The notes under the pieces: generated by a model
What the model was told of the DNA's origin: nothing
Databases searched by the model: none
What the model saw: the letters and a program-made list of their open reading frames with translations, nothing else
Shown here: piece after piece, positions 446 through 57,787 of the stretch
How the letters are laid out: each line of letters begins with the position of its first letter
How positions within the stretch are numbered: the first letter of the stretch is position 1
From: Candidatus Fibrimonadaceae bacterium
Lineage (GTDB): Bacteria; Fibrobacterota; Fibrobacteria; Fibrobacterales; Fibrobacteraceae
Direction: 5' to 3'
DNA length: 64,000 bases
NCBI GenBank assembly: GCA_031281275.1
Contig: JAITFP010000075.1
Coordinates: 18,056-82,055, forward strand
Program-made: the position numbers and the translations under genes

Positions 446-933
446 ATTCTTTTATTTAGGAATATAGAAATTTTGCTAAACGGCAAAGGGATAAAGGTTT
501 TGTCCCATGATTTTTTTAGCCTAAATGCGCGGCTATATTTTACATTAACCTCCACAAGCGGCACCAAAGCCTTGCGACAGAGCCACTCTGCACCGGGTTT
601 GGCTATGAGTGCCGGTCCCTTTGGACCATCTAAAGCCATGCCTGCCGAGCGACCCTCAGCCAAGGCTTTCAGCAAATGCCTAACCTCGCTTTGCCCCCTG
701 CTGCCCGAACCTCTAAAAACATCGTAGCCAAGGCTTTTAGAGAGTTTTGCGAATTTGCTTCCATCATCGCTTTTGCTTATCAAAACCGCTATATTCCTAC
801 GTTTAAAAGCCGCCAAGCAAGCAGGCAAATCTTGGTGCCACAAACCTATCACAACAGGCTCGCCTGCTGGCAAAGGCTTTTCAAATTTCACCCGCCAAGA
901 GAGGACGAGGAGTTTTAGGATTAGGTTTAGCAT
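442..933 (-). CDS. DUF374-type lysophospholipid acyltransferase-like protein
   Basis: 163-aa ORF. IGLWHQDL...ISKSDDGSKFA...RGSGSRGQ...ALDGPKGPA...G fits the DUF374/LPLAT pattern (GLWH..SxSxDG..RGSSxRGG..DGPRGP) as I remember it. Confidence 0.55.
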   Translation of the reverse strand: MLNLILKLLVLSWRVKFEKPLPAGEPVVIGLWHQDLPACLAAFKRRNIAVLISKSDDGSKFAKLSKSLGYDVFRGSGSRGQSEVRHLLKALAEGRSAGMALDGPKGPALIAKPGAEWLCRKALVPLVEVNVKYSRAFRLKKSWDKTFIPLPFSKISIFLNKRI

Positions 934-8480: not shown

Positions 8481-10529
8481 TTATTGTTCCATTCTATTTT
8501 TGCGAAAATACATTTTATAACGACCCATTTGCTGTTCCGTAAACTGTTCTGTTAGAATTTGATATGCTTGTGATGCAATTTGATCCCACATTTTTGAAAC
8601 TACCACAGCATCAGATTTTTCTATATTAGATATCAAAGAATCTCCAAAACCAGGAACTTCATTAAACCACCAAGATGCTTGTAAAAAATACGGACCCATA
8701 GGAGAATGTTTGGTATAACCGAAAATTCCTGGACCATTACTATTAAATTCATCTATGAAAGTGTATCTATCTATATTTAATTCATCCATTTTGGAATCTA
8801 AATAAATGGCTGCCTGTACTACTGGTTTCCTATTGTCATCCAAGTGTCTCTTTCGTCTATCATATTGAAAATCTGGCAAGTTTAACGTTGCTATTACAAG
8901 AAAAATAAAACTCACAAAACCCAATTTGGCAACCACAGAAATTTCTCCGTTCCAGTCTCTCTGCAAAAGTAAAACTAAAGCCATATAAAATGGCAAAGCA
9001 AATACATAGTGATGATTAAAAAATTCTCCGCCAACACCAACAGAATAAGTAGTCAAAAAGAAAGCGACTCCAAAAAGCAAAATTTTAGAAAAAATATTAT
9101 ATTCATCTTTTATTGAATTTATACTACGGAAAAATGGCATAGATAAAAGACCAAGCACTGCAATAGCAAGTCCCCACGAAAATGCATTCATATCATCATA
9201 TATACGAGAAAATTCCATAGCTCGACGAAATGGCGAACCATGTCTAAAAATATGGGTAGAAAACATAAAATTAAGGTAATGTAAGAAATCGAACAGCCAA
9301 CCGCAAATCAAAAGAATTAAAATCCCAAATAAAATAGCGATAGCCAAAGGCAAGGCAAAACGGTAAAGCCAACATTTTATGTTCCTGTACGCAATTAAAG
9401 ATACTCCCAAAAGTGGGAATAAAAATGGTTCTTTAAATCCGCAAGCTCCTAAAATTCCAATAATAGCAAGGGTTGTTGATAATATTTTCCCTTTTTCAAA
9501 ATTTGGCATTAGCATTCCAAACACAGCTATGCAACCAAAAGCTGCACCAAAAGATTCTACTTGAAATTCACCAGAACGTTCCGCAGAATACAAAGCAAGC
9601 AATAATCCAGCAAGCAGAGAAAAGGCAAGTTTTGAAACGGAACGATAATTTGATAGATAAAAATAGGTAATTACAGGAATCACAGCTGTTATCAGCAAAA
9701 CAAATGCTTGAAAGTATGACGTAAGAATAGAACTATCAGAAATTCTAAAAGAAATTGCACTCACAAGGAAAATTCCAAGGGGTTTAACATCCCAAAGCCC
9801 GCTCCAAGGACTAATCCCATTCACAATTCCTCTACCAATAGCATAATAAACCAGAGAATCCACAGTATATACATCTGTAAGTTCATAATCAATTCTAAGG
9901 CACAACTCCATAAAAGCATAAATCACAAAAGGAAACGCCAAAATGCAAGCAAAAATGGTCTCCTGATTTAATTTTACTTCCATCTTTTTTATAGTGAACA
10001 AGATTAAAAACAGAAAAAGCAGGAAAAAAATATGATATATTAACGAGAGAGAGCGAAATTCGTTGTAGAAAGGTACTTCAACCCGAAATCCACCAGGACT
10101 ACCATTATTCTTAATACGAAATTTAAAATGGTTCAAGCCTTCCTTAATATATTCTGAAAAATCAAAATCCACTCCTCTTATATAATCGCAAAGCCCCTGA
10201 ATACCCTCAAGCGGAATATTTTCGCCATTAATCCAAATTTCCTGTATGCAGTCATCCGGAATAACTTTATATTCCACAGTTTTTTTATTTTTAACCAATA
10301 AATTGTAAGATACTATAAACTCTTCACCGTTTGCCATATCAACAGAATAAGGCAATTCTATGTTTTCTGTTTTTCCGTCTCTTGTAACTTTTATATCTGA
10401 AAATTCCATTTTGGCAGGAATAAACACCAAATATAAAACAGCCAGCAATGGCAGCAAGCAAAACAAAGGTTTGCGCAATATGTTTTTTTTAACGCAGTTA
10501 AGCAATATTAAAATTCGTTCACGGTTCAT
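8481..10529 (-). CDS. membrane protein with the same N-terminal beta-rich domain as 3788..5554 and 5556..7316, but a different polytopic body and a C-terminal soluble tail
   Basis: 682 aa. IPDDCIQEIWINGENIPLEGIQGLCDYIRG..FDFSEYIKEGLNHFKFRIKNNGSPGGFRV, then many TM helices, then a ~120-aa hydrophilic C-terminus. Confidence 0.5.
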   Translation of the reverse strand: MNRERILILLNCVKKNILRKPLFCLLPLLAVLYLVFIPAKMEFSDIKVTRDGKTENIELPYSVDMANGEEFIVSYNLLVKNKKTVEYKVIPDDCIQEIWINGENIPLEGIQGLCDYIRGVDFDFSEYIKEGLNHFKFRIKNNGSPGGFRVEVPFYNEFRSLSLIYHIFFLLFLFLILFTIKKMEVKLNQETIFACILAFPFVIYAFMELCLRIDYELTDVYTVDSLVYYAIGRGIVNGISPWSGLWDVKPLGIFLVSAISFRISDSSILTSYFQAFVLLITAVIPVITYFYLSNYRSVSKLAFSLLAGLLLALYSAERSGEFQVESFGAAFGCIAVFGMLMPNFEKGKILSTTLAIIGILGACGFKEPFLFPLLGVSLIAYRNIKCWLYRFALPLAIAILFGILILLICGWLFDFLHYLNFMFSTHIFRHGSPFRRAMEFSRIYDDMNAFSWGLAIAVLGLLSMPFFRSINSIKDEYNIFSKILLFGVAFFLTTYSVGVGGEFFNHHYVFALPFYMALVLLLQRDWNGEISVVAKLGFVSFIFLVIATLNLPDFQYDRRKRHLDDNRKPVVQAAIYLDSKMDELNIDRYTFIDEFNSNGPGIFGYTKHSPMGPYFLQASWWFNEVPGFGDSLISNIEKSDAVVVSKMWDQIASQAYQILTEQFTEQQMGRYKMYFRKNRMEQ

Positions 10530-34129: not shown

Positions 34130-34139
34130 TTTCTATATT
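34130..34139 (+). promoter_or_regulatory. TTTCTATATT element 10 nt upstream of the ATG at 34150
   Basis: GGAATTTCTATATTAATACTGATTATG. Confidence 0.35.
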
Positions 34140-35867: not shown

Positions 35868-36785
35868 ATGGTTAGCTTTCGTTATTCCGCACCTATAGCA
35901 GCAATGATTGGTATGTTGCTTTTCTCTTGTGCTCCTGAAATTAAGCCTTTGCCATCAGAAGATGAACTAAAAAGTTCCTCCTCTGTTATTCCAACTCCTC
36001 CAATTTCTTCTTCATCTAGCAAGGCAACGCAAGGAGGTGGGCAGCTAGCTCAATTGGATGTGATAATCCGCGATTTCTCAGCTCCAGCTAACAGTCTTGG
36101 AGAAAGACAGGCTGCTGGTTATACCGGCTATTATGGCTTTCAAGAATTTGACTACAGCAAAAGTACTCAACAAAGAGAATGCAACGCCAACGGAGCCACA
36201 AAAGGCATGGTTAAATATACATTGGATTACAGTCAGTGCAAAGCAGGAGAAGAGAGACGTAATTGCGCAAGACCCATACCTGCAGACCCACCTCCAGAAA
36301 AAATGTGCTATGGAAAAGATTTGCAAAACTGGTACACCGATGGCGAGCATACAAAAACCTTTCACGAAATAATAACCTTAACACTCAAAAATGGACTTTA
36401 CGAAATAGATACTGCCGGATATTTTCCCTTGGATAAATATCCAGATAGCGAGACTTTCGGTAAGCAGAATTCAGATGGCAATGGAGTGAGGCATAATTTT
36501 GGATTTACGGTTGCTGGCTCGGCGGAATTTAAGTATATGGAAGGCAATAACGATAACTTCTTTGCCTTTAGAGGCGATGATGATATGTGGATGTTTATAG
36601 ATGGAGAGTTGGTAATGGATTTAGGCGGTGTTCATCAGGCTTTATCAGATTCAGTTAACATAGATGCCGTAGCAAGCAAAAGAGGTTGGGAAGATGGTTC
36701 TAACCATACAATAAACTTTTTCTATGCAGAAAGGCAAACTGCGGCATCAAATTTAATGCTTCGTTTTAGGCTTACTGGTCTTTAA
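35868..36785 (+). CDS. fibro-slime domain lipoprotein (PA14-like)
   Basis: 305 aa. LLFSCAPE lipobox. FGFTVAGSAEFKY...FAFRGDDDMWMFIDGELVMDLGGVHQA is the fibro-slime (TIGR02148-type) signature. Confidence 0.75.
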   Translation: MVSFRYSAPIAAMIGMLLFSCAPEIKPLPSEDELKSSSSVIPTPPISSSSSKATQGGGQLAQLDVIIRDFSAPANSLGERQAAGYTGYYGFQEFDYSKSTQQRECNANGATKGMVKYTLDYSQCKAGEERRNCARPIPADPPPEKMCYGKDLQNWYTDGEHTKTFHEIITLTLKNGLYEIDTAGYFPLDKYPDSETFGKQNSDGNGVRHNFGFTVAGSAEFKYMEGNNDNFFAFRGDDDMWMFIDGELVMDLGGVHQALSDSVNIDAVASKRGWEDGSNHTINFFYAERQTAASNLMLRFRLTGL

Positions 36786-39700
36786 GCAGCCAAAAAACTC
36801 CCGTCAAGTTTTTCTATTGAATCTGCAATATCCTTTCCGCCCGAAAAATAAATTCCATCGGAATTTTCTTCATTTACACCTCGTATAAAAATATAATAAA
36901 CTCCGCCAAATTTTTCTTTGAAATTGAAGTTTTCGTATATTTGCTCTAACCAGCGTTTTAGTGCGGCTGCGTAGATATAATATTGCAAATGATAAGCACT
37001 ATTACGCATAGCTTCTTCCATTCCAGCATTTGAAAAATCGCCGAGGCTGTTTGATTTCCAGTCTAGAATATAATATTTTCCGTCTTTGCCCAAAAATACC
37101 AAATCCATTGCACCTTTTATGTATTTTGCGAGCAATTCCTCATTTTCAAAATTCAAGATTTTTTCTTTCATTATTTCTTTTATTTTTTTCAAATCCAAAT
37201 TCTCTGCTTTCATAAAAAAATTCAATTCCGCTGCCCTGTTGCTAGCTTCTATTTCACAAAGTTTTCCGGCTTCGCCTAAATTTTTATTCAAAATTAGTTT
37301 AACCCGTTTTTCAACCCAGGCTTTTCTTTTTTCTCCCTCAGCCGTATTTTTGGAAAATTCCTTAAAGCCGCCCAATTTGCTTTCCACCAAATTGCGAATT
37401 TCATTTTCGTTTGCATCAAAATCCACATTCTCAAAAATACTGTGCAAAAGAGTTCCCATCACTTTGCCAGCTGGAATTTTTATCTCTGCCTCTTGCAAAA
37501 TGTGAATATGGTCTTTATGTTCCAAATTTAGCGAAATTGATGAGAAACTCGTATGTTGCCAAGCTGGAACTATTTGGAAATTTTTCGATTTAGGCGGTTT
37601 TAACTGCTGGTCTTGCTCGTTTTCTGAATTTAATTTGGAACTTTTTGGATATTCAATATCTGCAAAGCTATTCACTATCTGTATATTTTCATCTTCAGAT
37701 ATTTTGCTGCAAATTTTTTGCCCCGTAGAATAGATTTCTTTATAAGCATATACTATATATAATCTGTAAATAGGGCGCGTAACTGCTACATAAAAATTTC
37801 TTGCAGATTCTTGCAGAATTTCCTTTTGTTCTTTTGATTTTGCATTATCACTACCTTTGATTATTTTTCTATTGGAAATTTCATATTCCACAATAATATC
37901 ATTTTCATTTTCGTTATGATAAACTGGTGGCGATTTTTCATAAATAGATTTACCTGGCATTTCACCAGCAAGCATTATGTCTGGAACAAAAACTACTGGG
38001 AATTCCAAGCCTTTTGAAGTATGAATAGTCATAATTTGAACCGCATCATCGTCTGTTTCCAATTTTTCCTCAATTTCTTCGCCGCTCGCACTTTCAATCA
38101 ATTCTGCAAATCTCCTCAACATTCTTTCGGGAACTCTGCCAAATAGCGTTTCTTCTTCATTTAAAATCCATATAAGCTGCCTTAAATTTGTTGCATTTCT
38201 CTCGCCATTTTTTGCCTTTCGTATTTTTCCCCAAAGATTGCAAGAATCAAAAAACGAATTTATAGCCCGCATTATTCCATAACGCTTCCATGTATCAAAT
38301 GCCTCCGCAAAAGGTTTTATGTCTTCTATGGATAATTCTTTTGTGGATACGTCTCTTGTTTCCATCAGTGCTGCTTTTACTTGGCTCTCCTTTTGGCAGT
38401 GCACAAAAGCCCTTAACAGGCGTACAATATAATCTGCGGCATTGCTTTTGAATACGCTATCTGAGCGGCGAATAATTGCAGGAATGTTTTTTTTGTTTTT
38501 TCTAAGGGCATCTCTATATTCTCTTGCCTCTACATTTGTTCTTGTTAAAATTGCTATATCTCTTGCCTTTATCCTTCTAGTTTTATTCGTATCTTTATCA
38601 GATATTTCCGTATTGGTTGAATACAGCAAGCGAGCTATTTCTTGTACAATTTCCGGTTTAATGGAATTAAACTCCTGAGTTTCTTTGCTCTTATATTCTA
38701 CCTTTCGCACTACAAGCGGTTTTTGCTCTTTGCCGTTTATTGTAAGTTCTGGCAGATTTTTTTTCCCAGATTCAATAATTTTGTACTCTATTTTTTCATT
38801 TCCAAAAGGATTTTCTATATCAAAAATTTTATTCAATGCGTATAATAATCTTTTTTGCGTACGAAAATTTTCCCCTAATGGATATTGGAATTTTGCTTCT
38901 TTTTTTGCGTGTAAGTAGGTATCAATATCTCCGCCTCTAAATCTGTAAATAGCTTGCTTTGGGTCTCCAATCATAAAAAACGATTTGCCCTTAAACAGAT
39001 AACTGAATATTTCGAATTGCATTTTATCTGTGTCTTGAAATTCATCTATCAAAATTGCTTTATATTTTTTTTGCACGGCTTCAAAAAGTTTTTTTTCGCT
39101 ATCTTTATCTTTTTTCACCGCTTTATATGCATTTATTATTAAATCGTTATAACCCATAACTCTTAATTTTTTCTTTTCCACTTGCAAGGTTTCCAAAAAC
39201 TCCTTCCCCATTTTATACTGCAACTTCGCAACTAAATTTTCTTCATTTTTCCCAAGTTCTTTAAATTTTTCAAGGTTATTATTATATTCTTGGAATAAAG
39301 GATTTTTGTCTATATATCTTTTCCCAATTTCACCGCCCTTATTAAATATCACATTTTCTTTCTCTACCGCCGCTTTAAGCCGCAAATAATTTTCTGTTAT
39401 ATAACTCACATCTTCATATTTTATTTTTGCAGCGGGAAAATTGATGACGTTCTCTATTCCCGTTTTTAAAATGTCTGGAGAAAATTTTGAAGGCAAATCT
39501 TTTATTTCTTCATTTTCTAATTTTTCAATTTCCTTTCGCCAAAAATCTGCTACTATTCTATCTTCTATACCTCTTTGATTTTGAACAAATTCCATTTCTT
39601 CAAAATTTCCAATTTCAAAATCAAATTCACTGAGCAACCTTCTGCAAAAGCCGTGAATGGTGAAAACAGGCATTTCGTCTATGCGAGCAATGGCATCTAA

Positions 39701-39961
39701 CAAATTTGCTTTTTGTTCCAGAGTTAAACTTTCGCCGCTACTTGAGGTATATTCCTCTCTAATCCTTTCAGCGGTCTTTTTTTTAAGTTCTGCGGTAGCA
39801 GCTTCCGTGAAAGTGATCAAAACTATTTTTTCTATAGGCAAAAGCTCTTTCAAAAGACGAAAAACTATTAACCCTATGGTATATGTTTTGCCTGTCCCAG
39901 CACTAGCTTCTATGAGGACTTTTTCGTTTAGCGGCAGGGCGTTGATGTTAAGAGGTTGCAT
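36782..39961 (-). CDS. recB: exodeoxyribonuclease V beta subunit (RecB-type helicase-nuclease)
   Basis: 1059 aa. VLIEASAGTGKTYTI Walker A, ILIDEFQDTD, UvrD-type helicase motifs, and a C-terminal nuclease GAMDLVFLGKDGKYYILDWKSN. Confidence 0.85.
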   Translation of the reverse strand: MQPLNINALPLNEKVLIEASAGTGKTYTIGLIVFRLLKELLPIEKIVLITFTEAATAELKKKTAERIREEYTSSSGESLTLEQKANLLDAIARIDEMPVFTIHGFCRRLLSEFDFEIGNFEEMEFVQNQRGIEDRIVADFWRKEIEKLENEEIKDLPSKFSPDILKTGIENVINFPAAKIKYEDVSYITENYLRLKAAVEKENVIFNKGGEIGKRYIDKNPLFQEYNNNLEKFKELGKNEENLVAKLQYKMGKEFLETLQVEKKKLRVMGYNDLIINAYKAVKKDKDSEKKLFEAVQKKYKAILIDEFQDTDKMQFEIFSYLFKGKSFFMIGDPKQAIYRFRGGDIDTYLHAKKEAKFQYPLGENFRTQKRLLYALNKIFDIENPFGNEKIEYKIIESGKKNLPELTINGKEQKPLVVRKVEYKSKETQEFNSIKPEIVQEIARLLYSTNTEISDKDTNKTRRIKARDIAILTRTNVEAREYRDALRKNKKNIPAIIRRSDSVFKSNAADYIVRLLRAFVHCQKESQVKAALMETRDVSTKELSIEDIKPFAEAFDTWKRYGIMRAINSFFDSCNLWGKIRKAKNGERNATNLRQLIWILNEEETLFGRVPERMLRRFAELIESASGEEIEEKLETDDDAVQIMTIHTSKGLEFPVVFVPDIMLAGEMPGKSIYEKSPPVYHNENENDIIVEYEISNRKIIKGSDNAKSKEQKEILQESARNFYVAVTRPIYRLYIVYAYKEIYSTGQKICSKISEDENIQIVNSFADIEYPKSSKLNSENEQDQQLKPPKSKNFQIVPAWQHTSFSSISLNLEHKDHIHILQEAEIKIPAGKVMGTLLHSIFENVDFDANENEIRNLVESKLGGFKEFSKNTAEGEKRKAWVEKRVKLILNKNLGEAGKLCEIEASNRAAELNFFMKAENLDLKKIKEIMKEKILNFENEELLAKYIKGAMDLVFLGKDGKYYILDWKSNSLGDFSNAGMEEAMRNSAYHLQYYIYAAALKRWLEQIYENFNFKEKFGGVYYIFIRGVNEENSDGIYFSGGKDIADSIEKLDGSFLAA

Positions 39962-40026: not shown

Positions 40027-40037
40027 TTTACTATATT
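40027..40037 (+). promoter_or_regulatory. TTTACTATATT element 18 nt upstream of the ATG at 40056
   Basis: The same variant as upstream of recC and of 31882. AGAGG RBS between. Confidence 0.3.
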
Positions 40038-40055
40038 AACAAATAGAGGTTATTT

Positions 40056-40313
40056 ATGCAAGAATACGACAGGGAAAAGCATTTGAGAGACCTTGAATAT
40101 TTCAAGGAAAATCAAAATGAACTTTGTAAGAAATACAAAGGGCTTGTTTTGCTTTTGCAGAATGCTGCAGTTGTAAATGCTTTTAATAGTTTAAGAGAAG
40201 CATCTGACAAAGGCAAAGAAATGTTTGGTTATGGGAATTATTCAATACAGCCTTGTGTGGAAGGTGAGCCGGCGTATTCTATGGACTGTTATTCTCGAAG
40301 GATTAAATTTTAA
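40056..40313 (+). CDS. small hypothetical protein (85 aa)
   Basis: ORF with RBS. No family recognised with confidence. Confidence 0.4.
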   Translation: MQEYDREKHLRDLEYFKENQNELCKKYKGLVLLLQNAAVVNAFNSLREASDKGKEMFGYGNYSIQPCVEGEPAYSMDCYSRRIKF

Positions 40314-40468
40314 TGACAAACAATGCGATTACGTACAGATTTAATTTTACGGACGAAGTAAAAAAATATGTTTATGATTATCAAAAAGGTCTAGATAAAA
40401 GTGATAGCCCAAATACTAGACGTTTGGGTAGAATACTATTTGATTATTTGAATGAAGATGAGAAATAG
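40313..40468 (+). CDS. small hypothetical protein (51 aa), TAATG-coupled to the preceding ORF
   Basis: MTNNAITYRFNFTDEVKKYVYDYQKGLDKSDSPNTRRLGRILFDYLNEDEK. Below the ORF-track cutoff; read by hand. Confidence 0.25.
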   Translation: MTNNAITYRFNFTDEVKKYVYDYQKGLDKSDSPNTRRLGRILFDYLNEDEK

Positions 40469-40478
40469 GGAGGTTAAT

Positions 40479-40604
40479 ATGAAACAAATAACTTGTGAAT
40501 TGCTAAACGACAATGAAACAGTTTTTTCACTTATGTTCCACAGGATTTGGCAGAACGGGAAAGCATACCTAGTAGGTAGTGTTAGCCCTGATAGCCCTTT
40601 TTAA
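40479..40604 (+). CDS. small hypothetical protein (41 aa)
   Basis: GGGAGG RBS 5 nt upstream. MKQITCELLNDNETVFSLMFHRIWQNGKAYLVGSVSPDSPF. Confidence 0.25.
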   Translation: MKQITCELLNDNETVFSLMFHRIWQNGKAYLVGSVSPDSPF

Positions 40605-40615
40605 TTTTCTATATT
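40605..40615 (+). promoter_or_regulatory. TTTTCTATATT element 6 nt upstream of the ATG at 40622
   Basis: Exact consensus copy. Confidence 0.35.
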
Positions 40616-40621
40616 TAAGCT

Positions 40622-40729
40622 ATGACCCCAAACCCTAAAACCCATTTCGCCCCTCTTGCAGAAGATCTAGGTAAGAGTTTGGCTATTTGTATTGCTATTG
40701 AACAAATAGCAAAGGGTTTGGCAAGGTGA
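40622..40729 (+). CDS. possible 35-aa leaderless ORF (or 5' leader of the following gene)
   Basis: MTPNPKTHFAPLAEDLGKSLAICIAIEQIAKGLAR. Supported only by the motif position. Confidence 0.15.
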   Translation: MTPNPKTHFAPLAEDLGKSLAICIAIEQIAKGLAR

Positions 40730-40757
40730 ACAAAAATGGAGAAAGGAGAAAGATAAA

Positions 40758-41231
40758 ATGGAAATTCATAGATCAGATTTTCGTCCCAAAAGAATTATTT
40801 CTGTTAATTATGAATCATTTGAATGGTTTATAAACTGCCTTATAATTCTTAGCATTGCTCTTGCCGTTATAGAGTTTATATCGGCAGAATCTTATCAGTC
40901 ATTTATTTATATCCAATGTTCAATTTTGGGCATTTTTATATCAGAAATGGTTATAAAATATATTGCATTTGGCAAAGGGCTTTTCAAAAGTTGGAATCTT
41001 TTTGATTTTTTATCAGTGGTTTTAATTGTTATTTGCGAGATATTATTTATTTATGGAGGTTTAGCAACTATTTTACGAATTGTCCGAATAATTTTACGTT
41101 CTTTGCGATTTTTATTAAAAGCTAAACAAAATAAAGAGTATCTAGCAAAATTGGAAGAATCTTATAAGCAAATTCAAGAGGGGAAGAAAAGAACTCTTAC
41201 TATGGAAGAATTGGAGGATTTAGAAAAATGA
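40758..41231 (+). CDS. voltage-sensor-domain (S1-S4 of Ion_trans family) membrane protein with a YefM/Phd-like C-terminal tail; sits in the antitoxin position upstream of yoeB
   Basis: 157 aa. S2-S3 GIFISEMVIKYIAFGKGLFKSWNLFDFLSVVLIV (compare NaChBac-type F..E...R..A....FF+S.WNWFDFLIV). S4 LRIVRIILRSLRFLLK. No S5-P-S6. Tail NKEYLAKLEESYKQIQEGKKRTLTMEELEDLEK. ATGA overlap with yoeB. Confidence 0.55.
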   Translation: MEIHRSDFRPKRIISVNYESFEWFINCLIILSIALAVIEFISAESYQSFIYIQCSILGIFISEMVIKYIAFGKGLFKSWNLFDFLSVVLIVICEILFIYGGLATILRIVRIILRSLRFLLKAKQNKEYLAKLEESYKQIQEGKKRTLTMEELEDLEK

Positions 41232-41488
41232 AACCTATTTTTTCCGAAAAAGCTTGGCAAGAATATACTGAATGGCAAAATCAGGATAAAAAAACTATTA
41301 AACGGATAAATGAACTTATAAAAGATATTCGAAGAAATGGCTTTAGCGAAGGCATTGGCAAGCCAGAACCTTTAAAACACAAAGGGGTTTGGAGCCGCAG
41401 AATTGACGATTATAATAGATTTGTTTATACTGGCAACGAAAATAGAGATTTGGAAATAATATCCTGCAAGGGTCATTACGATTCCTAA
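41228..41488 (+). CDS. yoeB: type II toxin YoeB/Txe family mRNA interferase
   Basis: 86 aa. FSEKAWQEYTEWQNQDKKTIKRINELIKDIRRNGFSEGIGKPEPLKH...WSRRIDDYNRFVY...ISCKGHY closely follows E. coli YoeB as remembered. Confidence 0.85.
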   Translation: MKPIFSEKAWQEYTEWQNQDKKTIKRINELIKDIRRNGFSEGIGKPEPLKHKGVWSRRIDDYNRFVYTGNENRDLEIISCKGHYDS

Positions 41489-41523: not shown

Positions 41524-41535
41524 TTTTTCTATATT
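41524..41535 (+). promoter_or_regulatory. TTTTTCTATATT element 6 nt upstream of the ATG at 41542
   Basis: Exact consensus copy. Confidence 0.4.
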
Positions 41536-41541
41536 CCCAAT

Positions 41542-42150
41542 ATGGAAAAATACCAGATTATGATACAAAAACATCTAAAAAAATTAGACGAAAAAATTGA
41601 AATATTTATCAAATCGGGAAAACATTTACGAAATATCGCATTGATAGGCGTGGTATTTGCTGTAATAATAACAGTGAAAATTATAAATGCAATATTTGGG
41701 CAAACTTATGGTTCCGCAACAATCTATGGCAAAACATATAAAACCATTGTTATAGGCAACAAAACCTGGATGGCAGAGAATTTGAATCACGAAACACGAT
41801 TTTCAAAATGTTATGATAACGAATTCAGAAACTGCTACAAATATGGCAGATTATATAATTGGTACACAGCCCAAAAAATATGCCCTGAGGGTTGGCATTT
41901 GCCAGCAAATAACGAATGGGATGGGTTCTTTGCATCCTTGCTTGGTGGCATCGGTGTTCCCTATCCTACCGGCGACAGCACTATAGGTGCCAAATACTAC
42001 AATATTGACCATAGCGGCTATTGGTGGACTTCCACAAATTACGATATGGAAAATGCCATTGCCCGTAATATATACATAGATGAAGAACGCATTAAATGGG
42101 ACAAATTCGATAAAATAGGCTTGTTCAGTGTGCGGTGTGTTAAGAATTAA
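41542..42150 (+). CDS. membrane-anchored 'Fibrobacter succinogenes major paralogous domain' (FISUMP, TIGR02145-type) protein
   Basis: 202 aa with an N-terminal TM. IGNKTWMAENLN...YGRLYNWYTAQKICPEGWHLPANNEWD...GYWWTST. The 3' end overlaps the recC 3' end by 11 nt. Confidence 0.7.
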   Translation: MEKYQIMIQKHLKKLDEKIEIFIKSGKHLRNIALIGVVFAVIITVKIINAIFGQTYGSATIYGKTYKTIVIGNKTWMAENLNHETRFSKCYDNEFRNCYKYGRLYNWYTAQKICPEGWHLPANNEWDGFFASLLGGIGVPYPTGDSTIGAKYYNIDHSGYWWTSTNYDMENAIARNIYIDEERIKWDKFDKIGLFSVRCVKN

Positions 42151-45100
42151 AATACCCCCCAAACAACCTCTCAGAGCAACTCACAAATTCCCGTTCCACC
42201 CCCAAATCCTTCAAAGACTTTGCACTCCCTAAAACTTTTTTCGCATATTGAGAAAATTCTGCGAGTTCCCCATTAAAACCATTGCCGAAAATTTTTCCTT
42301 CCGCAACTTTTATTTTTTCTTCTTCGCTTTTATCAGATTTTAAATATTCCCAAGCAGCATCTGGGAAAATCGGCAACATTCTTTTTTCCAATTCCTGTTT
42401 TAGCTCCCATAATTTATTTAAAATTTCATTTGCTTCTTCTTTTGACATACCTCGCAATTCTATTACTGCATCTTTTAAAAATATTTTCGTATTTTGATTT
42501 TCATTCTTGGCATTTAAATTCAAATGATATAACCAATGTTTTAAACGATATTTGCCTTTATCTTTGTTCGGATAAATCCAATATGTTCCTTCCTTTTCAT
42601 TTTTTGCCTTTTCCTTTAACTCTTCCATTTCAATTGCCGTGCTGTCTATAATTTTGCTTGCAAATTTGCCGCTTGGCAAACTGCCTTTTAATTGGGAAAT
42701 TTTAACTTCTTCCATATATTTGTCGCGATTTTCATTTTTTAAAATCAAATCCGATAATTTCCACTTATCCAGCGCACTCTCTACAATGAAAGGTTCCTTA
42801 TTTTCCAATAGCTCAATAGGTTCTGGCAATTCTATTTTGCATACATATTTTAAAAAATACTTTGGAGCATCAGATAAAATTCTAAATAAAATATCAATAT
42901 CTCTTTTTTCTTCTGCTTCTTTGAATGAGGGTTTCCATTCCCAAATATTGCAATCAAAATTTTCAGAACTATGCCACCTATCATCATAAGTGCTCAATGT
43001 TCCGTTGAAATATTTTCTTGAAAAAGGTTGCAATGGATGTTTTACTATTAAATCTTTTTGTTCTATTCCATATTGTTCTTTCAAATTTTTCAAAAACATA
43101 ATCACTACGCTGGAAGGTTCAAGGTCTTCTGCAGTTTTTTCGCTTTGACCAATCCAACTTATGTAAAGTTTTTCCCTTGCACTGCAAATTAGCTCCAAAA
43201 ACATCAAGCGTTCCTCATTTGCCACATCTTTGTCGCCCTGTTTGTATTCTGTCATAAGGCTAATATCTTTGATTTGTCTTTGACGCGGAAATTCTTTGCT
43301 GTTCATTCCAATGCAGCAAATAACCTTGTGCGGAACAGCTCGTATTGTTTCAAAATTTGAAAAAGATACTTTGCCTGTCATAGAATATGATGATTTTGTG
43401 CTTGATTCCATTTTTCTCTGCAAAGCATTTTTCATCGTTGAAAAGCTAATTTGTACTTTTGAATTATTGCCAAAGCCTATGCATATTTCCTCTTTTAAAG
43501 AATTCCAAACATCTATGACTTTTTGGTAAGGGTCATCTTGGTCCTCGTTAAAATCAGTTGCATCATCGCCAAAAAATGCTGGCAAATTTTCCTTTAAAAA
43601 AACATCCCAGCCTTCTATTGATTTTTCCTTTTTGCTCTCAACATCAAATTTTTCCAAGGTTTTTACAAAATGCGCAAACTCGCCTAAAATATAAGCAGAA
43701 TTTCCCTCTATATCTGGATAGCAATAATCGCCAAGTTCAGAAAATCCATTTTCCGAAATCATAAAAAAACCCGCTTTCAACTGTTCAAATCCACCTGCAA
43801 AAGAATAATTAGGTGCTGGATCCGAGCTGTTAAGGCTATGCCGAATAGCATTTTCTTTAACCCATTTTTCCAAACGATCCCTATCGTTTGAATCCAACTC
43901 CCTGCCTTGCACGAACATTGAGTATTCAAACAAAGCGAGAATTTCTGGAGCTTCGTACCTACCGTCAATTTGAGAAAAGAGCAAATTCAAAAGTTGTGCG
44001 GTTTTATCGTATTTTTTTATATCTCTGTCTGCTATTTGAAATGGAATATCGTACCTGCGAAAAACGCTTTCTATTGAACTTGCATAAGTTTCAATGTTTG
44101 GAGAAACAACGGCTATATCGCTTGGCTTCAATGTTTTTTCCTCTGCAAATAAATCAAGCAAATAATCGCATAAAACTTCGATTTCTCTTAAAGGGGAAAA
44201 GCAACTGTTGAATGTTAGTCCTGTGTTTAAGGTACAAGGGACAAGGGATAAGGTATAAGATTTGTTGTTGTCTTGAATTATGTCATTTTGAATTTTTGAA
44301 AGCAAGGTTTCACTTGAATTCTTTTTTTCTGAGTTCAAAAATTCACAGGATATTTTTCCTTGTTCTTCGTACTGCGATATTTGCTCATAAATTACCTGCG
44401 CGCTTCTACCTAAATTTGCTATCAGTCTGTTGCCTAAATCCCAATATAGTTCATTTTCATTTGCAATTTTATTATTTGCCCAAGCCTCTTTTCGCATTCT
44501 TGCAATTTTCTTATCGCTAACAGAAGCCCCGATATATTCCTCGCTAACCTGAAGCAAATATAAATTCACTTTGCTGCCAGCCTTCGATAAATGGATTAAT
44601 GTTGATAGGTGAATTGGAGCAATTGACAAAGGGGCAAAAATGAAAATTTGTTTGGGCAAAAACTTTTTTTCGTTTTTTAATTCACTTTCAATAGATTTAT
44701 AAAGCTCATATATATTTTGTTCGTCTTTATATTTTTCTTTGAGTTCAAGCCAAAGTTTTTTTTGCCATTCTTCGTTTTTTGTAATGCTCTCATCTGGTTT
44801 ATTCTCTGTCCATTTTTCAATTAACTCTGGTCTGTAAATTTGATATGCAAAAAAGAGAGAAGCCAATTCACTAGCAAATAAGAATGTTTTTTTTTCGCCT
44901 TCCAGCAAAGCGTAAATTGCCCATACCAAATTGTGTGGGTTGTATATATTTTCTTTTTCGTCTTTTTTGTTTTGAGATAAATTGTAGGCACATTGCATTA
45001 AAAGCCCAACTAAGGGTTTGAAAGGCAATGCAGTCCATATTCCATATTTGTCTGCACAGGTTTTTTTCAAATATTCCTGCAAACCTTTTGATTCGCAAAT

Positions 45101-45226
45101 TATCAAACTACCACCAGTTAAAAATCCGCCTTTGGCGGCAGTTGCACCAAAGTTGCTTTTGGATAAAATATCTTCTAAAAACTTGTTAGCAAGCGTTTCT
45201 ATGTTTGTATGGAGGTATGTTTGCAT
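42140..45226 (-). CDS. recC: exodeoxyribonuclease V gamma subunit (RecC-like)
   Basis: 1028 aa. Size, the N-terminal MQTYLHTNIETLANKF (compare M..V.HSN.L..L...) and synteny with recB. Assignment is weaker than for recB. Confidence 0.65.
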   Translation of the reverse strand: MQTYLHTNIETLANKFLEDILSKSNFGATAAKGGFLTGGSLIICESKGLQEYLKKTCADKYGIWTALPFKPLVGLLMQCAYNLSQNKKDEKENIYNPHNLVWAIYALLEGEKKTFLFASELASLFFAYQIYRPELIEKWTENKPDESITKNEEWQKKLWLELKEKYKDEQNIYELYKSIESELKNEKKFLPKQIFIFAPLSIAPIHLSTLIHLSKAGSKVNLYLLQVSEEYIGASVSDKKIARMRKEAWANNKIANENELYWDLGNRLIANLGRSAQVIYEQISQYEEQGKISCEFLNSEKKNSSETLLSKIQNDIIQDNNKSYTLSLVPCTLNTGLTFNSCFSPLREIEVLCDYLLDLFAEEKTLKPSDIAVVSPNIETYASSIESVFRRYDIPFQIADRDIKKYDKTAQLLNLLFSQIDGRYEAPEILALFEYSMFVQGRELDSNDRDRLEKWVKENAIRHSLNSSDPAPNYSFAGGFEQLKAGFFMISENGFSELGDYCYPDIEGNSAYILGEFAHFVKTLEKFDVESKKEKSIEGWDVFLKENLPAFFGDDATDFNEDQDDPYQKVIDVWNSLKEEICIGFGNNSKVQISFSTMKNALQRKMESSTKSSYSMTGKVSFSNFETIRAVPHKVICCIGMNSKEFPRQRQIKDISLMTEYKQGDKDVANEERLMFLELICSAREKLYISWIGQSEKTAEDLEPSSVVIMFLKNLKEQYGIEQKDLIVKHPLQPFSRKYFNGTLSTYDDRWHSSENFDCNIWEWKPSFKEAEEKRDIDILFRILSDAPKYFLKYVCKIELPEPIELLENKEPFIVESALDKWKLSDLILKNENRDKYMEEVKISQLKGSLPSGKFASKIIDSTAIEMEELKEKAKNEKEGTYWIYPNKDKGKYRLKHWLYHLNLNAKNENQNTKIFLKDAVIELRGMSKEEANEILNKLWELKQELEKRMLPIFPDAAWEYLKSDKSEEEKIKVAEGKIFGNGFNGELAEFSQYAKKVLGSAKSLKDLGVEREFVSCSERLFGGYFNS

Positions 45227-45246: not shown

Positions 45247-46263
45247 TTAAACCTTCCTAAAATACCCTTCCTTCTCTGGCAAAAGAGAATCGGGGATTAA
45301 TTCTCTTGGAATTAGAACTGTCATTTTGTATTCGGCAACTTTAGGATGTTCTCCCGCCTGTAAACATAAAACGCCAGCTTTTATTATTGATGCTAATATT
45401 TTTTCGTAATAAGCAACAGAATTGTTGCAGTTTGTTTCTATCCAAGAATCTATATATTTTTCTACTATTTCTCTCTGCATTCCGTCAACCGCCATCTGTA
45501 TGCCAGTTTCTAAAAAATCTTTTTTCAAAAGTTTTTCTTTATCTATAAAGTTTTCCAAAGCAAGTATGCCCTCTCTACGGGCTATTTCGCAAAGTTTAAT
45601 TAACTTAATACATATTCTCTCGGCTTCCATTTCAAAAATTTTCTTCATTCCTATTTCCAAAACAGATTCATACTTGTAACGTGTTCTTGTTGCTCCACCC
45701 TGTACTTCTGTTGCTTCTATAACTTGTTCTTTAAGAGATTCTGGCACCAGCATAAACAGCCAGTCTTCCTGTTTAACCGCTTCAATGTACATATCTATGG
45801 TCTTAAATTTTTCTGGTACTTTAGTAAGCAACCACGCTGTCTTTTTAACCGCTTCAAACCAGAATTCTGCCGTTCTGATTTTTTCTGGCACCTCAGCGAG
45901 CAACCACTCATCTTTTTTAACCACTTCAAGCCAGAGTTCGGTTGTTCTAAATTTTTCTGGTATATATTCTTGTACCAATTCCCACGAATGCCTTTTAACT
46001 ATTTCAATATATAGTTCCACAGTCTTAGCATTTTCTGGTATGTATTCAAGTTCAAGAAAAACGCACCGGACTTTAATCGCTTCAAGACATACTTCCGTAG
46101 TTCTAAGTTCTTCTGGTACATAACGAAGTGCATAACGGTTTTCCTTTACTACTTTAAGAGCCTGCGCAACTGTTTTAATTTTTTTCTTCGGTTTGACTCT
46201 TTGGTAGTCTAATAAATTCTCTGTGAGCAAATCTATTTCTTCTTTGCTTAATATATCACCCAT
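45247..46263 (-). CDS. soluble protein: ~5 DUF4116-type 24-aa repeats followed by a TM-less MotA-cytoplasmic-domain-like region
   Basis: 338 aa. Repeats VPEKIRTAEFWFEAVKKTAWLLTK and similar. C-terminal ARREGILALENFID...FLETGIQMAVDGMQREIVEKY...IIKAGVLCLQAGEHPKVAEYKMTVLIP. No TM-length hydrophobic stretch. Confidence 0.55.
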   Translation of the reverse strand: MGDILSKEEIDLLTENLLDYQRVKPKKKIKTVAQALKVVKENRYALRYVPEELRTTEVCLEAIKVRCVFLELEYIPENAKTVELYIEIVKRHSWELVQEYIPEKFRTTELWLEVVKKDEWLLAEVPEKIRTAEFWFEAVKKTAWLLTKVPEKFKTIDMYIEAVKQEDWLFMLVPESLKEQVIEATEVQGGATRTRYKYESVLEIGMKKIFEMEAERICIKLIKLCEIARREGILALENFIDKEKLLKKDFLETGIQMAVDGMQREIVEKYIDSWIETNCNNSVAYYEKILASIIKAGVLCLQAGEHPKVAEYKMTVLIPRELIPDSLLPEKEGYFRKV

Positions 46264-47323
46264 TTTTCACCTCCAACTCTTCTTGATACACCGCCTCAAA
46301 AACTTCATTTTTCAAAGATTCCGGTATATCATCGTCAAGCAAATCTTTTAGACGAATTGTTACAAAATCTTCTCCCCACCATTTGCGCTTAGATTTGACT
46401 ACCTCAATGTAAAGCTCAACTGTTTTTAGGCGTTTTGGCACATCTTTAATTGCGAATGGGCTATTCTTAACCGCTTCAAGGCAAAGTTCTTTTGTCTTAA
46501 ATTCTTTTGGCACAAATTCAAGTGCACAACCGTAGTGCTCGGTTGCCTCGGCACAGAGTTCTTGTGTCTTAAATTTTTCTGGCACATATTTAAGTGCCCA
46601 ACCATTCTGCTTAACTGCTTTAACACAGAGCTCTTCTGTTTTGAATTCTTCTGGTACAAATTCAAGCGCGCAGCCGTCTTGTTCAACTGCTTTGCGGCAA
46701 AATTCTTCTGTTTTGAATTCTTTTGGCACAAATTCAAGCGCACAGCCGTATTGCTCGGTTGCTTCTGTGCAAAGTTCTTTGGTTTTGAATTTTTCTGGTA
46801 CATATTCAAGCATAATACCGCAATTTTTTATTGCATTGCAACATATTTCTTCTGTTCTAAATGCTTCTGGTATAAATTGAATCAGCCAACCATATTGTTT
46901 AATTCCTTCGGGGTAGAATTCTGTCCAAGTTGGTAGCAGTTCCATAGGAATAATGGATTTTATAAAAATATCAGTCATGCGAGGGTTTTCACCTGACTGA
47001 AGGCTTAAAATTCCAGTTTTGATAACCGAGAACAATATTTTATTGTAGTACTCGCAATGACCGGAACTATTTGCTCCTATCCAGAAATCTAAATATTCTT
47101 CTATTTTTGCGTTCTCCATTCCATCAACCACCATCTGCAAAGCAAATTCCAAAGGGTCTCCGTTTGGGTCTTTTTCTTTGTCTATAAACTTTTCAATGGA
47201 CAAAAGCCCTTCTCTTCTACACATCATAGCGGCAAAGCATATACGAAAGTGTATCCTCTCGTATTCTTTTTTGAAAGCCTCCACAGTAGCTTTTTCTACG
47301 GCTGATTCATATTTGATAGTCAT
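46256..47323 (-). CDS. soluble protein: MotA-cytoplasmic-domain-like region followed by ~7 DUF4116-type repeats
   Basis: 355 aa from MTIKYESAV (AGGAGG RBS; the track ORF extends to 47368). CRREGLLSIEKFID...LEFALQMVVDGMENAKIEEY...VIKTGILSLQSGENPRMTDIFIKSIIP, then VPEKFKTKELCTEATEQYGCALEF repeats. Confidence 0.55.
   Translation of the reverse strand: MTIKYESAVEKATVEAFKKEYERIHFRICFAAMMCRREGLLSIEKFIDKEKDPNGDPLEFALQMVVDGMENAKIEEYLDFWIGANSSGHCEYYNKILFSVIKTGILSLQSGENPRMTDIFIKSIIPMELLPTWTEFYPEGIKQYGWLIQFIPEAFRTEEICCNAIKNCGIMLEYVPEKFKTKELCTEATEQYGCALEFVPKEFKTEEFCRKAVEQDGCALEFVPEEFKTEELCVKAVKQNGWALKYVPEKFKTQELCAEATEHYGCALEFVPKEFKTKELCLEAVKNSPFAIKDVPKRLKTVELYIEVVKSKRKWWGEDFVTIRLKDLLDDDIPESLKNEVFEAVYQEELEVKNG
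46430..46900. repeat. 72-nt-period in-frame tandem repeat array (DUF4116 units)
   Basis: TT(T/C)TGG(C/T)ACA(A/T)ATT(C/T)AAG recurs near 46505, 46575, 46647, 46719 and 46791. The units at ~46505 and ~46719 are near-identical. Confidence 0.7.
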
Positions 47324-47348
47324 TTTTTCACCTCCTTTCTGCTTATTT

Positions 47349-47969
47349 TTAGAAGGGCAGTTCGCCATTGAAGCATTTTCCCTCGTTTTCTAAGGCTCGT
47401 TTTGCTATCTCTATAGGCTCAATGCACCACTGAACAATTTCTGGAACAGCCACTTTAAGCTCTGCAATAGCCTTGCTAAAATATTCATCGTCATAATTAA
47501 TACTTTTGCAAAGATACGCTCGCGCCCGCCATATTCGAGCTTCAAGGCAGTCTGGATCTTTTTCAAGCGCAGCGGTGTAGCTTGTTATTGCTTCGTCATA
47601 GTCTTCATTGACAAAATATTCATCGGCTTTGGTTAGGAATTTAAGAATATGAATTGGTTTTTGTGCGAAATAACCGTTTTCAAAAACTAAAGTCTCGTAG
47701 CTTGCCTGTTTTGTGTTAGCTGCAATGAGTGCTTTTGCTTCTGCAGCATCTACATTGTATTGCAAGAATAAAGTTTCGGCAACCGTTTTCCAATCGGTTT
47801 CGCTGCTTGCTACGCTGTCAAATTTGCAAACACCGTCAATTTTGACTGTTATTGAGCGAAGCATCGCTACTGCTTCTTTTTCAATGGCGTTCAAAATTTT
47901 CTGGTCTGAGCGCAGGTCATAGATTCTGCTTGCTATGGCTTTTGCTTCTTGTTTTATTGTATCACCCAT
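47349..47969 (-). CDS. TPR-containing protein
   Basis: 206 aa. ADEYFVNEDYDEAITSYTAALEKDPDCLEARIWRARAYL is a TPR signature. AGGAGA RBS. First gene of a 3-gene operon. Confidence 0.55.
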   Translation of the reverse strand: MGDTIKQEAKAIASRIYDLRSDQKILNAIEKEAVAMLRSITVKIDGVCKFDSVASSETDWKTVAETLFLQYNVDAAEAKALIAANTKQASYETLVFENGYFAQKPIHILKFLTKADEYFVNEDYDEAITSYTAALEKDPDCLEARIWRARAYLCKSINYDDEYFSKAIAELKVAVPEIVQWCIEPIEIAKRALENEGKCFNGELPF

Positions 47970-51310: not shown

Positions 51311-51655
51311 TTATAATATAGAAACTCCTTCATCATCATTATCTGCCATATATTTTTTCATTACAATCTTGATTTTTGGAGTTATGAGTTCCTTGGGCAC
51401 AAATTCAATCGCATCGCCAGTTTGCTTTACCGCAGCAAGGCAAATCTCCGAGATTTTTAGTTCTACAGGCACATATTGAAGCGCACAGCCGTTTCTCTTC
51501 ACCGCAGCAAGGCAAAGTTCTGGGGTTTTGTGTTTAGATGGTACGTAAGCCAGTTCATAGCCCCATTGCTTTACAACGGCAAGGCATAATTCATAAGTTT
51601 TGAATTTTGTGGGAACGAATTTAAACGTATCGGAGTTATTTTTCACCATAATCAT
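51311..51655 (-). CDS. DUF4116-type repeat protein (~4 units)
   Basis: 114 aa from MIMVKNN. ATGA overlap with the upstream stop (51652-51655). VPSKHKTPELCLAAVKRNGCALQY repeats. Confidence 0.55.
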   Translation of the reverse strand: MIMVKNNSDTFKFVPTKFKTYELCLAVVKQWGYELAYVPSKHKTPELCLAAVKRNGCALQYVPVELKISEICLAAVKQTGDAIEFVPKELITPKIKIVMKKYMADNDDEGVSIL

Positions 51656-57776: not shown

Positions 57777-57787
57777 AATATAGAAAA
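57777..57787 (-). promoter_or_regulatory. TTTTCTATATT element 6 nt upstream of the ATG at 57770
   Basis: Minus-strand reading AAATTTTCTATATTCAGAATATG. Exact consensus. Confidence 0.4.

Follow-up and report, generated by a model that had tools for sequence, protein, structure and literature searches.

The DNA analysed here is a stretch of 64,000 nucleotides (nt) of a Candidatus Fibrimonadaceae bacterium (contig JAITFP010000075.1, positions 18,056 to 82,055 of the forward strand), which is called the window below and in whose own numbering coordinates are given. On its plus strand we found a two-gene module in which a yoeB toxin gene directly follows a gene for a protein of 157 amino acids (aa), and the longer protein joins a voltage-sensor domain (VSD) to the C-terminal tail of a YefM-type antitoxin. 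The features of the module are as follows, S1 to S4 being the segments of the sensor.

40745..40748, plus strand: Shine-Dalgarno sequence GGAG of the VSD-antitoxin gene, ending 9 nt before the ATG
40758..41231, plus strand: VSD-antitoxin fusion gene, 157 aa, an open reading frame (ORF) with 9 homologues
40806..41117, plus strand: voltage-sensor domain, residues 17-120, from Pfam Ion_trans, PDB and Foldseek matches
40818-40880, plus strand: S1, residues 21-41
40896-40970, plus strand: S2, residues 47-71
40992-41048, plus strand: S3, residues 79-97
41064-41117, plus strand: S4, residues 103-120
41106..41228, plus strand: YefM-type toxin-neutralising tail, residues 117-157, RFLLKAKQNKEYLAKLEESYKQIQEGKKRTLTMEELEDLEK, from hhalign, the neutralisation being predicted
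41228..41488, plus strand: yoeB toxin gene, 86 aa, from PF06769, TIGR02116 and PDB alignments

The 86-aa protein could be assigned from its sequence as a full-length YoeB/Txe toxin with intact catalytic residues. It matched the whole PF06769 profile (positions 1-80 of 80; E-value 4.5e-29, 100.7 bits with a cutoff of 27), the TIGR02116 model (E-value 7.7e-23, 80.5 bits with a cutoff of 51.8) and E. coli YoeB 2A6Q (E-value 1.9e-22). Its E47, R64, H83 and Y84 aligned with E. coli Glu46, Arg65, His83 and Tyr84 (2A6Q_E, and also the 8YXV and 6L8E alignments), which we take from the established literature to be the catalytic residues, and the equivalents were kept in the translations of all seven full-length copies (7/7). 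The two genes are small, adjacent and co-directional, with the antitoxin first, and they are translationally coupled, as is characteristic of TA (toxin-antitoxin) modules of type II. The ATG of yoeB overlaps the stop codon of the fusion gene by 4 nt (ATGA, 41228-41231), and this overlap is kept in all the loci that were read. The Shine-Dalgarno region, GGAGAAAGATAAAATG, was found exactly in 4 of 8 loci and as close variants in the others, and its end, ATAAAATG, was near-invariant across the loci.

Residues ~17-120 of the fusion protein are a complete S1-S4 VSD, which passed every sequence and fold test for such a domain. Residues 20-126 matched positions 3-116 of the 241 positions of the Ion_trans profile PF00520 (E-value 3.3e-11, 43.3 bits with a cutoff of 25). 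This match covers S1-S4 without S5-P-S6; the protein ends 37 residues past S4, and those residues are antitoxin sequence. Lacking the S5-P-S6 pore domain, the 157-aa protein is classified as not being a channel. A phmmer search of PDB returned voltage sensors only, namely CaV2.1 (E-value 1.7e-10), NaV1.5 and the bacterial NavCt, NavMs and NaChBac. The AlphaFold model, obtained from a mixed alignment to which channel and antitoxin rows had been added, contained helices at residues 18-41, 47-76, 79-95 and 100-140 (predicted local distance difference test, pLDDT, 66; predicted template modelling score, pTM, 0.47); an earlier run on the 10-sequence family alignment only gave a pLDDT of 51, which was too poor for use. 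The Foldseek matches of the model that were listed (the best 50 of 200) all contained a VSD, with template modelling scores of 0.45-0.57, and included NaChBac, NavAb, NavMs, CatSper, TPC1 and the SLC9C1 sensor. The Foldseek E-values were weak (0.05-0.5), and weak E-values are usual for small helical bundles.

The residues that make a voltage sensor work were located by alignment to BacNaV-like proteins. E39 and Q53 form the outer polar cluster, F60 the hydrophobic constriction, and E63 and D83 the inner negative cluster; F60, E63 and D83 fall on F56, E59 and D80 of NavAb-type sensors, so a charge-transfer centre is present. R107, R110, R114 and R117 correspond to R1-R4 of NavAb, and K121 is a fifth charge of S4. 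For NavAb, both clusters, the constriction, R1-R4 and part of the numbering follow a published review (PMC13095418); the rest of the numbering is taken as that of the NavAb sequence. Ten of the eleven sensing residues (E39, Q53, F60, E63, K67, D83, R107, R110, R114, R117 and K121) were invariant in the family, and the eleventh, position 39, is E or D; across the whole VSD 57 of 107 positions (53%) were invariant, and the hypergeometric P for the excess was 0.008. The basic series of S4 (R107, R110, R114, R117, K121) is completely invariant, and the positions between the S4 arginines do vary in the fusion family. Relative to channels, S4 carries a one-residue insertion between R110 and R114 which results in a charge spacing of 3-4-3-4, and on an alpha-helix the five basic residues lie within an 80-degree arc. 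Lysine and arginine are confined to the N-terminus, the S2-S3 loop and the tail; because they are absent from the two outer loops, the positive-inside rule gives an N-in/C-in topology, and the tail is predicted to be cytoplasmic, in the same compartment as YoeB.

Searched alone, the tail gave weak matches only (DUF2683, E-value 0.006; a RelB-like NCBIfam model, E-value 0.09). It could be placed through a family of 78-aa YefM-like antitoxins: YoeB relatives with 68-72% identity occur on Fibrobacter-like termite-gut contigs, where an overlapping 78-aa antitoxin gene precedes them, and one 78-aa antitoxin comes from a metagenome-assembled genome of a 'Fibromonadales bacterium'. Residues 117-157 of the fusion protein aligned with residues 38-78 of this family by hhalign (98.6%, E-value 5e-16, 63% identity over 41 columns), and in an exhaustive search of 1.84e9 proteins profile positions 114-157 alone matched a 74-aa antitoxin (E-value 8e-8). 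The last 38 residues of the 78-aa antitoxin, LKAKRNAEYLAKLDKSFKQIKEGKKTTFTIEELEAMSK, belong to the same sequence family as LKAKQNKEYLAKLEESYKQIQEGKKRTLTMEELEDLEK of the window. Eight of the ten invariant residues of the 78-aa family are kept in the tail (N125, Y128, L129, G142 and E150-E153, the EELE positions included); of the two others, A75 is replaced by D154 and Y37 falls within the replaced part. The 78-aa family itself grades into proteins carrying PF02604 (Phd/YefM), and its profile matched S. aureus YefM 6L8E/6L8F with an E-value of 1.4e-8. In S. aureus YefM residues 1-40 bind DNA, and the C-terminal domain alone (alpha3, alpha4 and beta4) forms a U-shaped wrap which blocks the catalytic face of YoeB (PMC7544224); PDB entry 6L8G holds a 38-residue antitoxin chain along with the S. 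aureus YoeB chain. Judged by these alignments, the tail is the end of alpha3 with alpha4 and beta4, the toxin-wrapping segment of a YefM-like antitoxin. The 157-aa protein showed no PF02604 match, and hhalign paired only residues 117-157 with the antitoxin, residues 1-116 being the Ion_trans VSD. We therefore place it outside the Phd/YefM family, as a protein that carries the C-terminal module of that family only, without its N-terminal fold.

The antitoxin similarity starts within LKAK (residues 120-123), three residues past the last S4 arginine, and the junction thus lies where S4 ends on the cytoplasmic side and a channel would go on to its S4-S5 linker. N125, the first conserved toxin-binding residue, is eight residues past R117. 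In both AlphaFold runs S4 and the toxin-binding helix were continuous (103-140 and 100-140), at low to medium confidence, from which we infer that the VSD may be mechanically coupled to the toxin-binding site via one continuous S4-tail helix. A preliminary description made from the DNA letters had proposed a canonical YoeB overlapping the stop of the 157-aa gene by ATGA, a sensor of S1-S4 without a pore, a YefM-like C-terminal tail and the loss of the N-terminal DNA-binding and dimerisation domain. The ORFs proved exact, and the profile matches and the alignment to the 78-aa family bore out the other points, including the homology of the tail to antitoxins.

The same description had suggested a search for further loci of this kind, and eleven loci beside the window were found to carry the fusion gene, with an overlapping yoeB in 10 of the 10 where the sequence runs past its end. 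The nine database homologues of the fusion protein show 74-94% identity and all come from termite-gut metagenomes. Among 1.84 billion representative proteins, the exhaustive profile search found the combination of VSD and this tail in only one 50%-identity cluster; a scan of the GTDB species-representative genomes with the family alignment found no relative of the fusion protein. Flanking DNA is unrelated among most loci, the exceptions being short matches between L001 and L003 and a 28-nt match in the leader, and we conclude from this that the fusion/yoeB pair moves as a unit. In addition, L013 and L015 have the neighbours of L001, and L007 and L008 carry an identical YoeB, so that these five loci look like two shared contexts. 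No third conserved gene accompanying the module was seen around the compared loci.

In a neighbour-joining tree (no bootstrap) the VSD-partnered YoeBs were monophyletic and sister to the YoeBs with a 78-aa partner, which indicates a single fusion event followed by spread. By sequence comparison, one event exchanged the ~37-residue N-terminal domain of an antitoxin for a VSD, and this immediate ancestor of the fusion was a YefM-like antitoxin of 78 aa from the same bacterial lineage. The search for a donor of the VSD turned up no close channel, the best single-domain score being ~49 bits. The best per-domain scores of VSD relatives, 44-49 bits, occurred among short fragments, bacterial single-domain channels and four-domain channels. 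A whole-protein ranking had placed four-domain eukaryote-type channels at the top; this was rejected as an artefact of summing four repeats. A eukaryote-to-bacterium transfer of the VSD is neither supported nor excluded. Two other proteins of 137 aa each (P0238 and P0249), encoded on several 5-6 kb metagenome contigs, end right after S4 of a NaV/CaV-like sensor and have no antitoxin-like tail; they may be eukaryotic channel exons or free-standing sensors.

An architecture of this kind must have begun as a rearrangement, and it could be supposed that by accident a truncated channel gene became joined to a yefM-like gene's 3' end, giving a product which is inert or decaying. The rarity of the family, a single cluster found in termite-gut samples only, fits such an origin. 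The ORFs are intact in each of the eight copies that were read to their full length (8/8), with the 4-nt overlap kept, and the ratio of nonsynonymous to synonymous substitution (dN/dS; Nei-Gojobori, most pairs with dS>0.4) was 0.12-0.25 in the VSD, 0.02-0.25 in the tail and 0.1-0.3 in YoeB. Values well below 1 in all three parts and in most well-diverged pairs point to purifying selection on all parts of the module. The unrelated flanks of most loci argue against decay as well, and a YoeB with intact catalytic residues would be lethal without a working antitoxin. We consider a non-functional product very unlikely. The preliminary description had offered a fusion of a truncated channel gene to yefM and a genuine membrane- or voltage-coupled antitoxin as two options, and had named a tail without antitoxin similarity that cannot neutralise YoeB, or an inactive yoeB in a decay product unique to this strain, as outcomes that would overturn its idea. 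The tail did prove homologous to antitoxins, and with eleven further loci, intact ORFs and a dN/dS of ~0.1-0.25, such a unique product was not found. The two options are hardly alternatives: the fusion describes the origin, and the predicted membrane antitoxin what selection has kept.

The reading which we prefer, and which we hold tentatively at just short of an even chance, is that the module is a working type II TA system whose antitoxin became an integral membrane protein by the domain swap, and in which the movement of S4 controls YoeB binding. Classical YefM-style autoregulation would be impossible because the DNA-binding domain is absent. We favour electromechanical control in view of the retained sensor elements and of an S4 that is predicted to continue directly into the toxin-binding helix. 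The fusion protein would insert N-in/C-in, and its cytoplasmic tail would bind YoeB 1:1, holding the toxin at the membrane and off the ribosomes with its active site blocked. With S4 and the toxin-binding helix forming one helix, the sensor would be mechanically tied to where the toxin binds. As long as the cell is polarised, S4 would be 'down', the tail fully exposed and YoeB neutralised. A collapse of the potential, by phage lysis or holin proteins, membrane-damaging agents or energy loss, would let S4 move outward by ~1 nm; in NavAb the outward travel of S4 is roughly a nanometre (PMC13095418). By this movement N125 and Y128, at the start of the binding helix, would be drawn to the interface of the membrane, where YoeB would no longer fit. 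YoeB would then be freed, or the antitoxin destabilised, and ribosome-bound mRNA would be cleaved and translation would stop. That the module is in nature a voltage-gated TA switch, in which depolarisation moves S4, unloads YoeB and halts translation as an abortive-infection or energy-loss response, seems possible to us, its chance lying somewhat below even.

In the main alternative, the VSD may be a stable four-helix membrane anchor which sequesters YoeB, with the membrane potential playing no part. Turnover would then possibly be by a membrane protease such as FtsH and not by Lon or Clp, and the toxin would be released by proteolysis or by dilution after loss of the module (addiction). All support for a functional membrane antitoxin fits this explanation equally well, the family is too shallow for charge conservation to decide, and the irregular 3-4-3-4 spacing of S4 could mean that the sensor is immobile. 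However, one or two hydrophobic helices would do for an anchor. Four intramembrane arginines with their counter-charges and an aromatic constriction are costly, yet the sensing residues are kept beyond the level of the domain as a whole. The junction at the S4-S5 linker position and the continuous S4-tail helix also reproduce the coupling geometry of channels, of voltage-sensing phosphatases (VSPs) and of Hv1. We regard a passive anchor as plausible, with a probability distinctly below even.

In another explanation the VSD itself would be the effector, a pore-less sensor conducting protons or ions and acting as a second membrane toxin or depolariser which is regulated by YoeB bound to its tail. 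VSD-only proteins can conduct, as Hv1 does, and omega currents arise when an S4 arginine is missing at the constriction (PMC13095418); with the one-residue shift in register that lies between R110 and R114, there might be a state in which nothing fills the constriction. Gene order, overlap and tail homology all speak for an antitoxin, the sequence and fold matches are all NaV/CaV-type sensors with no Hv1-type similarity found, and all four S4 arginines are kept, which makes this explanation unlikely.

Several points weigh against control by S4 movement. Neutralisation, membrane insertion and voltage dependence of the fusion protein are properties that we infer from homology, and the structure model is of medium confidence only. 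The 3-4-3-4 spacing is unusual compared with a charge at every third residue, and it may bear on the movement of gating charge. The family is shallow, with its narrow identity range and one 50% cluster, and the invariance of the charges (P ~0.008) is modest evidence. As to expression, a single metatranscriptome contig of 155 nt and low depth runs from S3 to the tail with 2 mismatches; this is a weak sign of transcription, and carried-over DNA could account for it. That the module serves in phage defence is purely conjectural: the PADLOC defence models gave no match for 6 of 6 local proteins, and no copy of the fusion was present on the viral contigs searched.

The leader of the module and the genes around it contain the following features.

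36782-39961, minus strand: recB
40056-40313: small ORF, 85 aa, in an overlapping chain 5' of the module
40313-40468: small ORF, 51 aa, in the same chain
40452-40604: small ORF, 50 aa, in the same chain
40606..40615, plus strand: promoter-like box TTTCTATATT, ~140 nt 5' of the fusion start
40676..40723, plus strand: leader element, palindrome TTGGCTATTTGT/ACAAATAGCAAA, with arms at 40679-40690 and 40702-40713 and flanking GTTTGGC[TA]A boxes
41542-42150, plus strand: FISUMP-domain gene, 3' of the module
42140-45226, minus strand: recC

The 10-mer TTTCTATATT occurs eight times in the window (461-470, 1065-1074, 8618-8627, 34130-34139, 40606-40615, 41526-41535, 51315-51324 and 57777-57786) against 0.57 expected, a 14-fold enrichment; where its position was checked, start codons follow at a distance of 6-20 nt. 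It precedes the FISUMP gene (41526), the 78-aa antitoxin in L009 and VapB in L001, and was also found in L015. The lineage probably uses this 10-mer as its -10/-7 promoter box, which would give several genes very short leaders, and the copy at 40606-40615 may be the promoter of the module. The leader element is composed of inverted repeat I11 and direct repeats D1/D2, and GTTTGGCA boxes are repeated in the leader of the window. Inverted TTGCCAAAC...GTTTGGCAG boxes were found in the leaders of L001 (1836-1890), L003 (790-845) and L012 (1-70), and a second palindrome, GCACCAnnnTGGTGC, in the leaders of other loci. RNAalifold gave -3.7 kcal/mol for the leader with 2 compensatory pairs, which is weak covariation. 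The palindrome and the boxes may serve another protein as its operator or form a hairpin in the RNA. A 35-aa ORF at 40622-40729 was rejected as a gene, its frame being lost in other loci though the DNA is partly conserved.

The module lies within a 2.2-kb plus-strand block between recB and recC, which are both on the minus strand, and the FISUMP gene at its 3' end and recC at its stop share 11 nt. The small ORFs at 40056-40604 gave no family match in Pfam, NCBIfam or PADLOC. In termite-gut metagenome X2 the stretch 40028-40340 was up to ~160-fold deeper than the TA module, and in X4 it was about level; it looks like a multi-copy family, at least in X2. In one X2 contig 40023 is connected to 41525 through 16 unrelated bases, and this may be the empty site of a related strain without the 1.5-kb stretch of small ORFs and TA module. 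In a second X2 contig 42151 leads back to 40042, and the 85-aa ORF thus also follows FISUMP genes elsewhere. Just past the 5' end of recC lie two adjacent minus-strand genes for DUF4116 repeat proteins (338 and 370 aa; 45247-47368). In L001 a VapB/PIN (VapC) pair is located at 3989-4569, 1.3 kb downstream of the VSD-YoeB module, and in L001 and L015 a gene for a TM2-domain membrane protein overlaps the yoeB stop.

Compared with known systems, the module shares with YefM-YoeB the toxin family with its catalytic residues intact, the gene order, the translational coupling and a homologous antitoxin C-terminal segment. It differs from YefM-YoeB in having a four-helix membrane domain in place of the dimerising, operator-binding N-terminal Phd/YefM fold. 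The YefM antitoxin is soluble and acts through autoregulation and conditional cooperativity, neither of which would be expected to operate in the window antitoxin, which is predicted to be membrane-integral. As functional analogies only, without homology, two other systems can be mentioned. The epsilon antitoxin of omega-epsilon-zeta has no operator binding of its own and relies on the separate regulator gene omega, and no conserved third gene of this kind belongs to the window module. Membrane-tethered anti-sigma factors hold a cytoplasmic effector inactive at the membrane until a signal arrives and are subject to regulated proteolysis.

Among voltage-sensing proteins, NaChBac, NavAb and NavMs were the best single-domain matches in sequence and fold, with the charge clusters, the constriction Phe and the four S4 arginines in common; they differ in their ~25-35% identity, and the window protein has no S4-S5 linker, pore or C-terminal bundle and carries the S4 insertion. 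By analogy, the module most resembles VSPs and SLC9C1 in function, and Hv1 and TMEM266 in layout. In VSPs and SLC9C1, too, S1-S4 have no pore of their own, and a functional element in the cytoplasm is attached where S4 ends on the cytoplasmic side (reviewed in PMC13095418). They show no homology to the window protein beyond the VSD; they are eukaryotic, with an enzyme or transporter effector domain in the same chain, whereas the bacterial protein has a 38-residue peptide predicted to bind a separate toxin. Hv1 and TMEM266 are similar in size and layout, S1-S4 being followed by a cytoplasmic helical extension of S4 (PMC13095418). Both are eukaryotic and their extension is a dimerising coiled coil, whereas that of the window protein is an antitoxin segment and conduction is not expected; no specific sequence similarity of the window VSD to Hv1 was found. 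The proteins with a voltage sensor that the review names are channels, Hv1, TMEM266, VSPs and SLC9C1, and no others (PMC13095418). In a full-text literature search we found no voltage sensor joined to an antitoxin, no membrane-anchored antitoxin, no membrane-integral YefM and no pore-less prokaryotic sensor. As far as could be found from the literature, the exhaustive protein search and general knowledge, the architecture is new and, if the voltage reading is true, it would be the first case of a voltage sensor in prokaryotes that drives an output other than a pore.

For a YefM-YoeB system it would be unusual, even with the VSD as a mere anchor, to have a type II antitoxin that is membrane-integral and has no DNA-binding domain. 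If the voltage reading is true, the module would add to pores, phosphatases and a transporter a fourth type of output for voltage sensors, and the smallest one, consisting of a 157-residue sensor and a 10-kDa partner. It would then be a minimal system in which to study electromechanical coupling, and might also provide a part from which to build systems that release a protein under the control of voltage. What triggers chromosomal TA modules is a long-standing question, and the antitoxin of this module carries a recognisable physical sensor which suggests a specific trigger, the loss of membrane potential; on the same reading it would be the first TA module with its trigger written into its architecture.

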